Part shown: positions 1 to 4,860 of the stretch, one piece after another
How positions within the stretch are numbered: position 1 is the first letter of the stretch
Layout: each line of letters opens with the position of its first letter
Virus record (IMG/VR): IMGVR_UViG_2690316267_000015
Source: a virus
Lineage: Duplodnaviria; Heunggongvirae; Uroviricota; Caudoviricetes
Strand: one strand, 5' to 3'
DNA: 4,860 nt
The notes under the pieces: model-generated
The model's input: the letters and a program-made list of their open reading frames with translations, nothing else
Database searches by the model: none
Told to the model about the DNA's origin: nothing
Program-made: the position numbers and the translations under genes

Positions 1-44
1 TATAATAAACTTACTTTTTTATCATTTTTCCACTTTAACAACAT
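1..44 (-). CDS. Possible 5' end of a divergently transcribed gene running off the left edge (reads MLLKWKNDKKVSLL...)
   Basis: ATG at 44..42 on the - strand, preceded by GTGGAG (Shine-Dalgarno-like) 4 nt upstream. The frame is open to the window edge. Only ~14 codons are visible, so this is weak. Confidence 0.2.
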   Translation of the reverse strand, partial: MLLKWKNDKKVSLL

Positions 45-316
45 TTTGCTCCACTTTTCCACGACCAAACAACTTGAAATCTGGTTAAAATAACACGCAA
101 CACTATTCTTCTTCCTTGAGTCCGCCCGGAACTCGAAAAACAAACCGAGTTAAAGCCATTTTTCACAAAATCGATTTTGGGTCTCACCAAAGTTACGGGG
201 TTGCATACGCATTCGTTTATTTTCGAACGTGTACATACAAATATGCACAAAAATAATCAAAATTATTTTCTGAGATGCATTATGATATGAAAACCAATTT
301 CGTATAGAGTCTCACT

Positions 317-907
317 ATGTCTCGAATTTTTGCTTACTGTCGGATATCAACGCTGGATCAGACCACCGAAAATCAACGCCGGGAAATCGAAAGTGCAGGT
401 TTTAAAATCAAACCTCAGCAAATAATCGAAGAACACATTAGCGGCTCAGCAGCAACCAGTGAGCGTCCTGGTTTTAACCGGTTGCTTGCTCGCCTGAAAT
501 GTGGTGATCAATTGATTGTGACAAAACTGGATCGCCTTGGTTGTAATGCAATGGATATCAGGAAAACAGTGGAACAACTGACCGAAACAGGTATCAGAGT
601 GCATTGCTTAGCATTGGGGGGCATTGACCTGACCAGTCCAACAGGAAAAATGATGATGCACGTAATTTCAGCAGTCGCTGAATTTGAACGAGACCTTTTA
701 CTTGAACGCACTCATTCCGGGATAGTAAGAGCCCGCGGCGCAGGGAAACGTTTTGGTCGACCACCTGTGTTAAATGAAGAACAGAAACAGGTGGTATTCG
801 AACGAATTAAGTCAGGTGTAAGTATAAGTGCCATTGCCCGGGAATTCAAAACCTCGCGGCAAACCATTTTAAGAGCCAAAGCAAAACTTCAGACACCTGA
901 CATATAA
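317..907 (+). CDS. pinQ: Serine-recombinase DNA invertase, Pin/Hin/Gin/Cin family (196 aa)
   Basis: The 196-aa ORF begins [15 protein letters not shown], with the catalytic serine in the conserved R-I-S-T-x-D-Q motif. It has a resolvase-type catalytic domain and a C-terminal helix-turn-helix ([17 protein letters not shown]). I recognise it as the PinQ/PinR type of E. coli cryptic prophages. The symbol pinQ rather than pinR is chosen from the neighbouring genes. Confidence 0.95.
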
Positions 908-1004
908 AAAATAATCTCGGTGTGAGATGCTTTACGTCTTCCAAGCCCCCTTCCTTGCCGTAAATGGAGAGATACATCTAATTATAGAATTTATATGTTT
1001 TACC

Positions 1005-1580
1005 CTACGGCAGTGCTGGCCATTCAATATCCGGTGCAGTTGATGTATCAACACGGTTCAGCAACACCCGATACTTTTTCCAGGCTTCCAGCAACAAGGT
1101 TTCTTCCTCCGTTGCGATCTCCAGATCCACAGCATCCTGAAGCGGCGCTATATGCTCACTGGCTATCTGCATCAGGCTGTTTTTTGTTTCTTCCGCCTCC
1201 CGGATCCGGAACAGTTTTTCTGCTTCCGTATCCTTCACCCAGGCTGTGCCGTTCCACTTCTGATATTCCCCTCCCGGCGATAACCAGGTAACATTTTCCG
1301 GTAACGGACCGAGTTCAGAAATAAATAACGCGTCGCCGGAAGCCACGTCATAAACCGTTTTACCCCGATGATCTTCAACGAGATGCCACGATGCCTCATC
1401 ACTGTTGAAAACAGCCACGAAGCCTGCCGGAATATCTGGCGGTGCAATATCGGTACTGTTTGCTGGCAGACCTGTATGAGGCGGAATATATGCGTCACCT
1501 TCACCAATAAATTCATTAGTTCCGGCCAGCAGATTATAAATTTTTATGGTCCGTGCTTGTTCACTCATTCTGAATGCCAT
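1005..1580 (-). CDS. tfaQ: Tail fibre assembly protein (191 aa)
   Basis: The 191-aa ORF ([24 protein letters not shown]...) is recognised as the lambdoid Tfa family. GAGG lies about 9 nt upstream of the ATG. The start overlaps the stop of the upstream stf fragment as TAATG (1578-1582), a classic stf-tfa translational coupling. Confidence 0.92.
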
Positions 1581-1888
1581 TATGCAAGCCTCACAATATA
1601 GTTAAATGCGATGTTTTTGACGGTGTTTTCCGCGTTACCAGCAGCGTTAACGGTGATGGTATGTCCATGTGAACCAATCGCAACGGAGTGCGTATGAGCA
1701 CCAATACCGACAGTATGTGCGTGTGCACCTGCGCTTGCAGCAGTACCCGATACAGAGTGCGTATGAGCGCCTGCAGAAGAAGTGTTAACACTGTATTTAG
1801 AATAATCAGGTGATCCACTTCCCGGAGCACCACTGGAACCACCTGAAACAAATGTCATCGAATGGGTATGTGCACCGGCTGTCCCCAT
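1580..1888 (-). pseudogene. stfQ: Side tail fibre protein, C-terminal fragment only (102 codons from an internal ATG)
   Basis: The translation contains five GAHTHS-like His-box repeats ([35 protein letters not shown]) and ends ...[26 protein letters not shown], typical of lambdoid Stf and T4 gp37-like fibre tips. Upstream of the ATG at 1888 this frame is out-of-frame J sequence, so the N-terminal about 90 percent of a normal Stf is absent. Confidence 0.8.
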
Positions 1889-3222
1889 GCATTTACCGCC
1901 CGGACTGTCAGCCTGTAATTTCCCAGCGCCAGCTGCGTGAAGCGATATGTGGTTTCCGTCGTCCGGGCCGTGCTGACCAACCGCTCACTGCCGTCGTCCG
2001 CTGCCACGGTCAGGCGAAGCATAAAGCTCACCCCCTTCACCACCTTCGGCGTGTCCCAGCGCGCCAGCACCTGGTATTCCCCGCTGTCTGCGGTGACTTC
2101 TGCGGTCAGGTGCTGAACTGCTGGCGGCGTGACACCATTCACCGTGCCGCTCTGGTCACCGTCAAAGTGCGCCCCGTTATCCACGATGGCTTCTTTCTCC
2201 GGTACATGCTGCACGGCAGTGATGGCATACGTACCGTCATCGTTCTCACGGATACTCACACAGCGGAACAGGCGCTGACGCAGCGTCGGCAGCTTCAGCC
2301 CCCACACGCTGTACTCGGCAACGCCGTCAGGAACCCGGCTCACTTTCACCTTCACGCCGTCGGTGACGGACTGGACCTCCACGCTCACCGGATTACCCTG
2401 CCCGTCAACCAGGCTTATCAGCGTGGTGCCGGAGGATGGCAGCGTGATTTCACGGTCGAGCGTCAGTGTCCGCGTCTGGCTGTTCACCGCCAGCACGCGC
2501 CCGCCGATGCTGATCCCCGCATAGTCATCATCACAGATTTCAATGACATCACCTGGTACATGGCGAAGCCCTTCGGCACCCACGCTGAAGTCCACGGTCT
2601 GCGTTTCCAGCAGTTCCGTTTTAATCAGCCACAGCCCGGCTCGGTGCGCCTGCCCCCGCCTGGTACAGCCAAAGGCATCCATCTTCGTGACGTTACGACC
2701 GTAACGGGCAATGGCCTGCGTGTCCTCCACAAGCTCTGTCGCCGTCTCCCAGCCGTTATCCGGGTCAATCCAGTTCACCTCAACGGCATTATGGCGGTCC
2801 TTCAGGGCGCTGAAGCTGTAGCGGAACGGCGCGCCATCATCCGGCATCACCACATTACTGCGGTTATAGGTCCACACCTTATCTGATGGTCGGTCCTGCA
2901 CGAACGTCAGCGTCTGCCCGTTCCATACCGGCATACAGCGCATCGCCGAGCAGAAATCACTGAGAACATCCCACGCCTTACGCTGTGTGGTCAGCCAGGC
3001 ATTACAGGTGATGCGCGGCTCCGTGCCGCCAAAACCGTCCGGCACCGACTGGTCGCAACACTGGCCGATGACATACAGCGCCCATTTATCCACATCTGCC
3101 GCACCAAGACGTTTACCCATGCCGTAGCGCGGGTGGCTGGAGATCTGTCTCGCTGGCCTGCCGCAGTTCTTCAACTTCCCGGCGCAGCTTTTCGTTCTCA
3201 ATTTCAGCATCCCTTTCGGCAT
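1855..3222 (-). pseudogene. Lambda J-like host specificity (central tail fibre) protein, internal fragment
   Basis: From roughly 3141 down to 1879 the translation (...YGMGKRLGAADVDKWALYVIGQCCDQ...GQTLTFVQDRPSDKVWTYNRSNVVMPDDGAPFRYSFSALKDRHNAVEVNWIDPDNGWETATELVEDTQAIARYGRNVTKMDAFGC...RAVNAWGQ) matches the middle third of lambda gpJ as I recall it. The ATG at 3222 lies inside Nu1-derived DNA and has no convincing Shine-Dalgarno sequence. The J C-terminal receptor-binding region and N-terminal region are missing. Confidence 0.8.
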
Positions 3223-3370
3223 ACCATTTTATGACGGCGGCAGAATCATAAAGCACCTCATTACCCTTGCCACCGCCTCGCAGAACGGGCATTCCCTGTT
3301 CCTGCCAGTTCTGAATGGTACGGATACTCGCACCGAAAATGTCAGCCAGCTGCTTTTTGTTGACTTCCAT
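3113..3370 (-). pseudogene. nohQ: Terminase small subunit Nu1 homolog, N-terminal DNA-binding fragment (Nu1 residues about 1-79, then out-of-frame tail)
   Basis: MEVNKKQLADIFGASIRTIQNWQEQGMPVLRGGGKGNEVLYDSAAVIKWYAERDAEIENEKLRREVEELRQASE is near-identical to the lambda gpNu1 N-terminus as I recall it. Homology stops near 3134; the remaining 6 codons (PALRHG) are not Nu1. The ATG sits about 189 bp from cosN, as in lambda. Confidence 0.85.
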
Positions 3371-3390
3371 TGTTCATTCCACGGACAAAA

Positions 3391-3595
3391 ACAGAGAAAG
3401 GAAACGACAAAGGCCAAAAAGCCCGCTTTCAGCACCTGTCGTTTCCTTTCTTTTCAGGGGGTATTTTAAATAAAAACATTAAGTTACGACGAAGAAGAAC
3501 GGAAACACCTTAAACCGGAAAATTTTCATAAATAGCGAAAACCCGCGAGGTCGCCGCCCCGTAACCTGTCGGATCACCGGAAAGGACCCGTAAAG
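3391..3595 (-). other. cos: Lambda-type cohesive end site (cos): cosB with R1, I1, R2, R3, then cosN, then the cosQ-side flank
   Basis: On the - strand the sequence reads GGGCGGCGACCTCGCGGGTTTTCGCTATTTATGAAAATTTTCCGGTTTAAGG..., which is the lambda left end as I recall it. R-site-like 16-mers lie at 3391-3406 (R1, - orientation), 3440-3455 (CGTTTCCTTTCTTTTC, R2, + orientation) and 3492-3507 (R3, - orientation, one mismatch to lambda). An AT-rich IHF-like stretch lies at 3461-3485. The right-end flank CGTAACCTGTCGGATCACCGGAAAGGACCCG (3560-3590) matches the lambda right end. Confidence 0.85.
3548..3559. other. cosN: cosN 12-nt cohesive-end sequence (AGGTCGCCGCCC on +, GGGCGGCGACCT on -)
   Basis: Exact match to the lambda 12-nt 5' overhang sequence, with lambda-identical flanks on both sides. 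Confidence 0.85.
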
Positions 3596-3758
3596 TGATA
3601 ATGATTATCATCTACATATCACAACGTGCGTGGAGGCCATCAAACCACGTCAAATAATCAATTATGACGCAGGTATCGTATTAATTGATCTGCATCAACT
3701 TAACGTAAAAACAACTTCAGACAATACAAATCAGCGACACTGAATACGGGGCAACCTC

Positions 3759-3992
3759 ATGTCTACGAAGAACAGAACCCGCAGAACAACAACCCGCAAC
3801 ATCCGCTTTCCTAACCAAATGATTGAACAAATTAACATCGCTCTTGAGCAAAAAGGGTCCGGGAATTTCTCAGCCTGGGTCATTGAAGCCTGCCGCCGGA
3901 GACTGTGCTCAGAAAAAAGAGTTTCTTCTGAAGCAAACAAAGAAAAGAGTGACATTACTGAATTGCTCAGAAAACAGGTCAGACCAGATTGA
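3759..3992 (+). CDS. ynfO: Small basic protein with predicted ribbon-helix-helix DNA-binding fold (77 aa), ynfO-like
   Basis: 77-aa ORF with GGGG 8 nt upstream of the ATG. It has a basic N-terminal arm (KNRTRRTTTRN), then RNIRFP (beta strand, compare Arc FNLRWP), NQMIEQINIALEQKG (helix A ending in Gly), SGNFS turn and AWVIEACRRRL (helix B). This is the Arc/Mnt/CopG pattern. A charged C-terminal tail of about 30 aa follows. Confidence 0.85.
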   Translation: MSTKNRTRRTTTRNIRFPNQMIEQINIALEQKGSGNFSAWVIEACRRRLCSEKRVSSEANKEKSDITELLRKQVRPD

Positions 3993-4049
3993 AGCAATTT
4001 AGATAATCGTGCAGACTACGCCCCCTCATATCACATGGAAGGTTTATCT

Positions 4050-4460
4050 ATGGATCAGGTAGTCATTTTTAAACAAATATTTGATAAAGTTCGAAACGAT
4101 TTAAACTATCAATGGTTTTATTCTGAGCTAAAACATCACAATGTCTCACATTACATTTACTATTTAGCCACAGAGAATGTTCATATTGTATTAAAAAATG
4201 ATAATACAGTGTTATTAAAGGGCCTAAAAAACATTGTGTCTGTCAAATTTTCAAAGGATAGGCATCTTATAGAAACGACCTCTAATAAGCTGAAATCCAG
4301 AGAGATCACATTTCAGGAATACAGAAGAAACCTTGCTAAAGCAGGAGTTTTTCGGTGGGTTACAAATATCCACGAACAAAAAAGATATTACTATACCTTT
4401 GATAATTCATTACTATTTACTGAAAGCATCCAGAAAACTACACAGATCTTACCACGCTAA
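4050..4460 (+). CDS. ydfO: ydfO/ybcV-family protein (DUF1398 as I recall), 136 aa; an alternative in-frame start at 4035 would give 141 aa
   Basis: The ORF track gives 4035..4460. The second ATG at 4050 has a better Shine-Dalgarno sequence (GGAAGG at 4037-4042, 7-nt spacer) and yields [14 protein letters not shown]..., matching the ydfO-type start I recall. The gene is very AT-rich, far below the J fragment in GC. Confidence 0.85.
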
Positions 4461-4468
4461 ACCATAAC

Positions 4469-4497
4469 GTCCGGCTTCTCTCACTCCTGAGCCGGAC
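4469..4497. terminator. Perfect 8-bp GC-rich hairpin (GTCCGGCT, 13-nt loop, AGCCGGAC) between convergent ydfO and the gns-like gene; candidate terminator
   Basis: The stem arms are exact reverse complements and the hairpin lies 9 nt after the ydfO stop. The T-tract after it on the + strand is weak (TGCATTGGTTT), so intrinsic terminator activity is uncertain. Confidence 0.45.
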
Positions 4498-4563
4498 TGC
4501 ATTGGTTTAATAAAAACCATCAACAATTGTGATTTAGATATTCGGAACCATTCAAATATAACA

Positions 4564-4585
4564 AAACCCCGTAAAAACGAGGTTT
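4564..4585 (-). terminator. Rho-independent terminator for the gns-like gene
   Basis: The - strand RNA reads AAACCUCG-UUUUUA-CGGGGUUU followed by UUUUGUUAUAUUU. That is an 8-bp stem with one G-U pair and a U-tract, about 25 nt downstream of the stop at 4612. The + strand version has a C-A mismatch, so it is asymmetric. Confidence 0.6.
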
Positions 4586-4611
4586 ATGGATAAATTTTAT
4601 TATTGAATACA

Positions 4612-4794
4612 TCAGATTAAATTAATCTTGACATCATAGCTTTCAAGACCCGTCATTTTTTCCCGTGCGGTAAACTGAATACTGGTAACTTCTTTCCCGG
4701 TCTTTTTCTTAAGTTCAATAATTTTTTTTGTTATATATTCAGAAATATCTGCTTCTGCTTTTGTTTTTAAGGAAGGTGCGAATAAGCAGGTCAT
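4612..4794 (-). CDS. gnsB: Gns-family protein (GnsA/GnsB-like), 60 aa from the ATG at 4794; the frame stays open upstream to the window edge
   Basis: The C-terminal two thirds (ISEYITKKIIELKKKTGKEVTSIQFTAREKMTGLESYDVKINLI) closely resemble GnsA/GnsB as I recall them (…KNTGKEVSEIRFTAREKMTGLESYDVKIKIM). GGGAAG lies just upstream of the ATG at 4794. The ORF-track version (4612..4860) begins at a GTG at the window edge, so the true start is uncertain. Confidence 0.75.
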   Translation of the reverse strand: MTCLFAPSLKTKAEADISEYITKKIIELKKKTGKEVTSIQFTAREKMTGLESYDVKINLI

Positions 4795-4860
4795 TTCTTC
4801 CCAAGCTGACTCGCTGATTAAAATTTCTCGGATCTGGGCCGATTTTTTTCCCGCAAACAC

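Follow-up and report, generated by a model that had tools for sequence, protein, structure and literature searches.

This locus raises the question of whether a stump of the lambda terminase gene Nu1, cut off after its DNA-binding domain and joined to the middle of the tail gene J, still serves a function, and how the deletion that created it came about. A sequence-only reading of the window (the whole stretch of 4,860 nucleotides analysed here) had left two options for the encoded polypeptide, (i) a decoy or exclusion function against incoming lambda-like phages and (ii) an inert remnant.

We determined the origin of the window by comparison with complete bacterial genomes. All 4,860 bases match E. 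coli SCPM-O-B-12142 at 99.9% identity, and the window belongs to the cryptic lambdoid prophage Qin. In that genome, ydfJ is followed by ynfT, ydfK, pinQ and tfaQ and then by tail fibre, J and terminase small subunit pseudogenes; beyond the Nu1 stump (Nu1′), the order continues with ynfO, ydfO, gnsB and ynfN, then cspI, rzpQ, rrrQ and essD, and relBE. Comparison of the annotated loci shows that this gene order is collinear with K-12 MG1655, where the region bears the feature label 'cryptic prophage Qin', and Qin membership is thereby borne out. An IS5-family element lies between the late genes and Nu1′ in SCPM-O-B-12142, and the last 89 bases of the window are the end of this insertion sequence. 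The PGAP annotation of the same genome calls Nu1′, the J fragment (J′) and the side-tail-fibre fragment (stf′) pseudogenes, all three. Nu1′ is therefore already known, as a PGAP-annotated pseudogene in a well-known cryptic prophage. The late-gene remnants and the junction are located as follows:

3113–3370, minus strand: Nu1′ ORF, 85 aa (ORF translation, blastn, BLASTP, Pfam PF07471, PDB, PGAP)

3134–3136, minus strand: deletion junction, CCA microhomology (3-nt overlap of two blastn alignments, comparison of the parental sequences)

1875–3136, minus strand: J′ fragment, lambda J residues 282–700 (blastn, BLASTP, Pfam, PGAP)

1580–1878, minus strand: stf′, C-terminal side-tail-fibre fragment with GAHTHS repeats (translations, PGAP, blastn, Pfam)

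Nu1′ consists of codons 1–79 of lambda Nu1 (3134–3370), six out-of-frame codons (PALRHG) and a TAA stop at 3113–3115. On the minus strand, window positions 3134–3559 align to lambda 1–427 at 98.1% identity (blastn, NC_001416); since Nu1 starts at lambda 191, lambda 427 is the final base of codon 79. The homology had been placed from codon 1 to about codon 79, ending near 3134, and the lambda alignment gives exactly codons 1–79 with its edge at 3134. At the protein level, residues 1–79 are the same as in gpNu1 except for A75T (BLASTP, E=2e-57), and the three coding differences from lambda comprise two synonymous changes and one non-synonymous change. Lambda 138–315 matches base for base, which leaves the native ribosome-binding region, the start codon and codons 1–41 unaltered, in agreement with the proposal that the gene keeps its own start and ribosome-binding region.

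The J homology resumes immediately. Window 1875–3136 (minus strand) aligns to lambda 16347–17608 at 92.6% identity (blastn, NC_001416) and, J starting at lambda 15505, J′ spans codons 282–700; the J-frame ORF is 95% identical to gpJ 281–700 (BLASTP). The pairwise alignments to lambda Nu1 and J, which had been suggested as a check, fix the exact junction at the trinucleotide CCA (3134–3136), shared between Nu1 codon 79 (CCA) and J codons 281/282 (acC CAc). Across the junction the Nu1 frame reads CAG CCA / CCC GCG CTA CGG CAT GGG TAA and the J frame CAC CCG CGC TAC GGC ATG; the two frames differ and the fusion is therefore out of frame. The sequence-only reading was right to place J in another frame but had its homology start near 3141, whereas it begins at 3136. 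J′ lacks the N-terminal 281 and the C-terminal 432 residues, so that, with 282–700 of 1132 residues kept, it is not a full-length gpJ. It retains the Pfam domains Phage-tail_3 and Ig_J, and PGAP labels it as a pseudogene, 'host specificity protein J, missing N- and C-terminus'. A candidate internal ATG at 3120–3118 overlaps the Nu1′ stop (ATGGGTAA), its frame ending at the stop at 1855–1857, and some gene callers predict a 421-aa ORF at J′.

That the locus is a deletion scar is evident from these alignments: the Nu1 and J homologies meet, and lambda 428–16346, equivalent to 15,919 bp, is missing between them. Neither the window nor the 28.9-kb SCPM-O-B-12142 locus shows homology to gene A; J codon 282 directly follows Nu1′. 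A second junction lies at 1875–1878, where J breaks off at about codon 701 and continues into the last ~100 codons of the side tail fibre. This J′/stf′ scar is common to NCTC9040 and FDAARGOS_1337 and is older than the Nu1′/J′ junction. Inverted repeats marking a Pin-invertible segment were not found in window positions 880–2000.

The size of the gap does not imply that it arose at once. We compared the window with three sister alleles of the Nu1 scar:

K-12: Nu1 (lambda 1–719) fused to side-tail-fibre sequence (nohA, 189 aa; stfQ)

NCTC9040: Nu1 ~1–700 (1–703 by blastn) joined to lambda 2177–3470 (A′-W-B′) and then to J 16136–17608

FDAARGOS_1337 Qin: Nu1 1–699 joined to J 16135–17608, with a Nu1 ORF of 191 aa

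Window positions 1–3136 match FDAARGOS_1337 Qin at 99.9% identity and positions 3134–4771 at 99.8%, and the sole difference at the junction is that 477 bp, spanning the older junction (3603–4079 of the compared FDAARGOS_1337 locus), are absent from the window. As these extra 477 bp extend the lambda Nu1 match up to 699 and the lambda J match back to 16135 without a break, they are ancestral and the window allele is derived. By sequence, the direct precursor is the Nu1(~699)::J(~16135) fusion type. The same out-of-frame joining of Nu1 to J occurs in Qin of FDAARGOS_1337, in E. coli B REL606, in E. coli C and in ATCC 8739; this older fusion keeps 170 Nu1 codons, in a 191-aa ORF annotated as an intact 'terminase small subunit', and 71 more J codons than the window allele. 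In REL606 it lies in a DLP12-like prophage with flanks that diverge by ~4%.

Allele counts were made across 5426 complete genomes. Of these, 25 carry the window allele as one uninterrupted collinear match, all 100% identical over 201 nt, and from this uniformity and low number we take its junction to be young; NCTC10973 and SCPM-O-B-12142 are examples of strains with the allele. The older Nu1(~699)::J(~16135) junction occurs in 64 complete genomes which, together with the divergent flanks in REL606, indicates that it is old. The K-12-type junction is found in 371. The window junction is most parsimoniously read, from the sequences compared, as a secondary 477-bp microhomology-mediated deletion inside an already dead fusion. 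A single deletion of 16–17 kb was considered and rejected in favour of sequential deletions on comparison of the FDAARGOS_1337, NCTC9040 and K-12 scars. The claim of one deletion of a 17-kb class is accordingly not upheld: the lambda-equivalent loss is 15.9 kb, and the window is separated from the older fusion by a step of 477 bp.

The explanation that we favour, with high confidence, is a compound deletion scar in the Qin late region that left a pseudogene remnant, most probably without a selected function. An ancestor would already have lacked the genes for packaging and for the head, and most of those for the tail, owing to the fusion of Nu1 (lambda ~699) to J (lambda ~16135). A further 477 bp would then have been lost by an illegitimate, CCA microhomology-mediated deletion, which would have taken out the old junction together with Nu1 codons 80–170 and J codons ~211–281, leaving Nu1 codons 1–79 out of frame with J codons 282–700. 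The 85-aa ORF would survive only because this deletion is recent and because the 5′ end of the gene is untouched. IS insertions are seen in the lineage of the window allele and, taken together with the several scars at the Qin locus, they point to ongoing neutral decay.

The closest known relative is K-12 nohA (b1548, Qin), which shares with the window the prophage, the locus, the cos site and the flanking genes ynfO, ydfO, gnsB, pinQ and tfaQ. The DNA is 97.9–99.3% identical on both sides, and both loci hold a Nu1 remnant without the terminase large subunit. They differ in that K-12 NohA keeps Nu1 codons 1–176, fused to stfQ, whereas the window allele keeps 79, fused to a J fragment that K-12 does not have. 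The nohD/nohB locus of DLP12 likewise has a Nu1 homologue beside a cryptic cos. No functional literature on nohA or Qin was found in our search, nohA being mentioned only in SNP tables. One such table contains the reciprocal changes NohA R48K/R70L and NohD K48R/L70T, which look like paralogue cross-mapping or gene conversion.

Directly upstream of Nu1′, a cognate lambda-type cos region (cosN and the cosB R sites) is present and near intact:

3395–3507, minus strand: cosB, compared with lambda (R3 contact segment after PMC9026076, architecture after PMC4669245)

3395–3406: R1, same as lambda

3440–3451: R2, inverted, same as lambda

3496–3507: R3, TGTTTCCGTTCT, with one change, C53T

3548–3559, minus strand: cosN cohesive-end sequence GGGCGGCGACCT, same as lambda

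3548–3763, minus strand: cosN and its left flank, the 204 bp to the left being identical to lambda 48299–48502

There is no mismatch to lambda from 48299 through to 52, and cosQ presumably lies in the 204-bp stretch left of cosN, as on the lambda map. The segment of R3 thought to be contacted is bp 55–63 (PMC9026076), and C53T falls outside it. The IHF-site region between R3 and R2 carries A73G, and cosB further differs from lambda by a 1-nt deletion at lambda 137 and by C151T.

This degree of conservation brings up a different reading of the locus, namely that the DNA matters and not the protein: cosQ-cosN-cosB would be a live terminase substrate or sink, with Nu1′ as a bystander, and as a substrate would lead to cutting of the chromosome and to packaging of the adjoining host DNA in one direction, towards pinQ/ydfK. 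Besides cosN, R1, R2 and the left flank, all the same as in lambda, and R3, altered only at bp 53, there is precedent for it: lambda terminase reportedly cuts the K-12 chromosome at the cos sites of nohA (Qin) and nohB (DLP12) (Kotani et al. 1992, Nucleic Acids Res). However, no second correctly oriented cos lies within a head-length in the 28.9-kb locus, and mature transducing particles are for this reason not expected; the three cosB changes A73G, the deletion at 137 and C151T also count against it, and it is silent on the Nu1′ ORF itself. We therefore regard this reading as unlikely.

The position of the R sites bears on a further possibility. Nu1′ (start 3370) and ynfO (start 3759) are separated by a divergent region of 388 bp that contains R1–R3, and Nu1′ could in principle be a small MerR-like winged-helix regulator that binds the R sites and modulates ynfO-ydfO or itself. 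The domain does resemble MerR-type and regulator winged helix-turn-helix (wHTH) proteins (PMC6739421; mad1 profile match, see below). Yet the R sites are 250–360 bp away from the ynfO start, and lambda itself shares the arrangement, with a YnfO homologue adjoining cos. There is no known regulation of this kind. The missing promoter signal and the weak specific binding described below count here too, and we consider a regulatory role extremely improbable.

We assessed the retained and missing parts of the protein against Pfam, PDB and published work on the lambda small terminase subunit (gpNu1, TerS). PF07471 (Phage_Nu1) is matched at profile positions 1–81 of 164 (E=1.4e-48), the rest being absent; the N-terminal winged helix-turn-helix DNA-binding and dimerisation domain (DBD) of the family is thus present, and PGAP labels the ORF 'terminase small subunit, incomplete, missing C-terminus'. 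The identification of the 79 retained residues with the winged-helix DNA-binding domain holds up against structures: Nu1′ is 100% identical over residues 1–68 to 1J9I, the NMR structure of the DNA-binding domain (gpNu1 1–68), and is the same as chain B of 6HN7 (lambda TerS 1–98 in complex with RppC) up to residue 79 except for A75T. In gpNu1, the recognition helix comprises residues 17–24, the wing residues 31–39 and the tight DBD dimer contacts residues 11–13 and 43–51 (PMC6739421, PMC9026076); all of these fall inside the retained 79 residues, of which 1–74 are the same as in lambda. Residues 80–181 are missing, that is, the central self-association region, called the oligomerization domain by Murialdo and Feiss (PMC9026076), and the C-terminal TerL-binding domain; TerS binds TerL through its C-terminal ~40 residues (PMC9026076). 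With neither the oligomerisation nor the TerL-binding domain left, and with TerL itself gone, Nu1′ cannot be a terminase subunit. Compared with lambda gpNu1, the stump thus shares the wHTH, the wing, the dimer interface, the native start and the adjacent R sites, whereas residues 80–181, gene A and the head genes are found only in lambda.

The ORF is intact, and the domain that it keeps is one able to fold and dimerise alone (1J9I, 6HN7); transcription of the region, for instance through read-through of the Qin late operon or trans-activation by the Q protein of an infecting lambdoid phage, could therefore yield a stable product. Nu1(1–79), once made, might poison an incoming terminase by forming DBD heterodimers with full-length Nu1 or by occupying R sites. 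This reading, which we judge very unlikely, draws on the retained recognition helix, wing and DBD dimer contacts, on the finding that TerS 1–98 is a soluble dimer (PMC6739421) and on the precedent of Rpp, a protein of phage-inducible chromosomal islands (PICIs) that blocks lambda packaging by heterodimerising with the TerS DBD (PMC6739421, 6HN7). Rpp of E. coli PICIs (e.g. EcCICFT073) mimics the TerS DBD and heterodimerises with it (PMC6739421), and Nu1′ is that DBD itself. The two differ in an additional C-terminal coiled-coil of Rpp, through which the heterodimer exceeds the TerS homodimer in stability; Nu1′ ends six residues past codon 79. Rpp diverts terminase to the cosB of its own island, which differs from that of the helper phage; the cosB beside Nu1′ is of lambda type. 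Finally, Rpp is a selected and expressed gene, and Nu1′ does not show these traits. An inhibitor of the Rpp type is thought to require molar excess over TerS as well as the stabilising coiled-coil, and Nu1′ has neither (PMC9026076). Lambda TerS binds R sites weakly (Murialdo and Feiss, PMC9026076), and a TerS fragment with the DBD hardly discriminates between specific and non-specific DNA, binding the two about equally (PMC9026076), which makes such a fragment a poor competitor for cosB. Our literature search for gpNu1 truncation constructs returned nothing relevant.

The expression signals also argue against interference. A consensus scan of the minus strand detected no sigma-70-like promoter upstream of Nu1′, the only match lying inside the ORF; terminator-like hairpins are located upstream at 4585–4564 and 3799–3779, behind which Nu1′ occupies its late-operon place, and in SCPM-O-B-12142 the IS5-family insertion lies upstream as well. 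To be transcribed, Nu1′ would need read-through from the Qin late promoter, which is distant, and expression is probably low. The truncation point is accounted for by chance microhomology, and sister alleles truncated elsewhere, at about 170 codons, are commoner. A selection test on codons 1–79 has no power because there are just three coding differences from lambda.

We also searched for signs of a defence function with PADLOC. Nu1′ matches the 60-position mad1 wHTH profile (E=3.8e-12), a match that was rejected as a sign of defence and that lends interference no weight: it is generic, full-length lambda Nu1 and K-12 NohA scoring the same. In MADS systems, mad1 is an accessory component resembling a regulator, and deleting it changes little; the mandatory components mad6, mad7 and mad8 were not found nearby, nor was any other mad gene, and five other window proteins (J′, YnfO, YdfO, PinQ and TfaQ) gave zero PADLOC matches.

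The identical 85-aa sequence recurs widely in public assemblies, with at least 1000 contigs carrying it (2226 index blocks), and has a Qin context at every place read. This frequency is compatible with selective retention and does not require it; it would equally be expected if a neutral allele were specific to one common E. coli lineage. A decoy or exclusion function is physically possible but speculative, and we give it very little credence. Its most specific form is just as improbable: the stump would be made on lambdoid infection (e.g. by trans-activation of the Qin late operon), would be dominant-negative with incoming Nu1 and would exclude phages with a lambda-type cosB. Of the two options in the sequence-only reading, the inert alternative is the better supported, and Nu1′ is most likely an inert decay product.

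If the stump did interfere with lambda packaging, this would be a simple instance of a truncated phage gene taking on a role in defence; the exclusion reading, if true, would describe a defence born of gene decay, with a target analogous to that of PICI Rpp. As it stands, the window adds one further allele to the known Qin decay series, which matters little as such. At least four different scars are documented at this one locus in public E. coli genomes, and the modest worth of the finding lies in how cleanly it illustrates a prophage late region being eroded step by step through microhomology.

At the 3′ end of Nu1′, the 85-aa open reading frame that retains the first 79 codons of lambda Nu1, the stop codon and an ATG in the J reading frame overlap on the minus strand as ATGGGTAA (window 3113-3121):

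3120-3118, minus strand, ATG in the J frame
3115-3113, minus strand, TAA stop codon of Nu1′

A stop/ATG overlap of this type is the layout classically associated with translational coupling. In several public annotations, a 421-aa ORF starts at this ATG; it comprises J residues 285-700 and five foreign residues. At the other end of J′, the retained J fragment, the window contains a second clean deletion junction (1875-1878), where J homology ends at 1875 and homology to the GAHTHS-repeat C-terminus of a tail fibre extends to 1878. This junction is common to the Qin prophages of NCTC9040 and FDAARGOS_1337 and absent from K-12. The neighbouring pinQ (317-907), encoding a serine invertase of the Pin/Gin type, is intact, and a scan of the tail-fibre region beside it (880-2000) found no remaining inverted repeats of at least 14 nt. 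PinQ appears to be an invertase without its former invertible segment.

Comparison with other E. coli prophages concerned the older fusion junction, Nu1(699)::J(16135) in lambda coordinates. In NCTC9040, 1287 bp of A′-W-B′ DNA corresponding to lambda 2177-3470 (locus L004, 6346-7632) lie 0-2 nt from the exact site at which Nu1 and J are joined directly in other genomes, such as FDAARGOS_1337 (locus L005, 3808-3814), and the flanks of this block are 99.9-100% identical between the two strains. The coincidence of the block endpoints with the direct junction is explained by neither deletion nor insertion. A loose motif (GATACC, GGTATCC and GCTACCC) is common to the three sites. The same junction also occurs at a different prophage locus in E. 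coli B REL606 (551-554 kb; locus L006, 5241-5816 and 2465-5311), with flanks diverged by ~4% and a J that runs on to its C-terminus. This locus is a DLP12-like prophage (ylcI, iss/bor, rzpD, rrrD, essD and an IS1-split porin). The shared junction suggests exchange between the late regions of Qin and DLP12, or their common descent.

For NohA and NohD of E. coli, R48K/R70L and K48R/L70T, respectively, have been listed as ‘mutations’ after phage exposure (PMC11297538, Table 2). These changes are near-reciprocal, and exactly so at residue 48, where both lambda and the window have K and K-12 NohA has R. The pattern resembles cross-mapping between paralogues, or gene conversion, more than it does independent mutation.

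Relative to lambda, the cosB region (window 3371-3559) carries five differences: C53T, at which the R3 core begins; A73G, in the IHF-site region that separates R3 from R2; T102C; C151T; and a 1-nt deletion at lambda 137. On the complementary strand beside cos, lambda itself contains an open frame of 64 codons (48109-48303, minus strand) that has no entry in the NC_001416 feature table used; over residues 1-49 it matches YnfO of the window (DUF3950, 3759-3992) exactly.

Over its final 89 bases (4772-4860), the window diverges from almost all other genomes, whose alignments end at 4771. This stretch starts with GGAAGGTGCGAATAAG, which we take to be an IS5-family terminal repeat. In the source strain, an IS5-like transposase gene of the ISKpn26 family lies just past the window end (locus L001, 16772-17967), the element having entered gnsB at its 5′ end. 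Some genomes of the lineage with the 85-aa ORF carry further IS1 insertions, one of which truncates ynfO close to cos, and a disruption inside J′:

Locus L011 (GCA_040813535.1), 1065-1762 and 2846-3543, and locus L010, 4251-6129: further IS1 insertions and J′ disruption

These additional events show that decay of the region is still continuing within this lineage.
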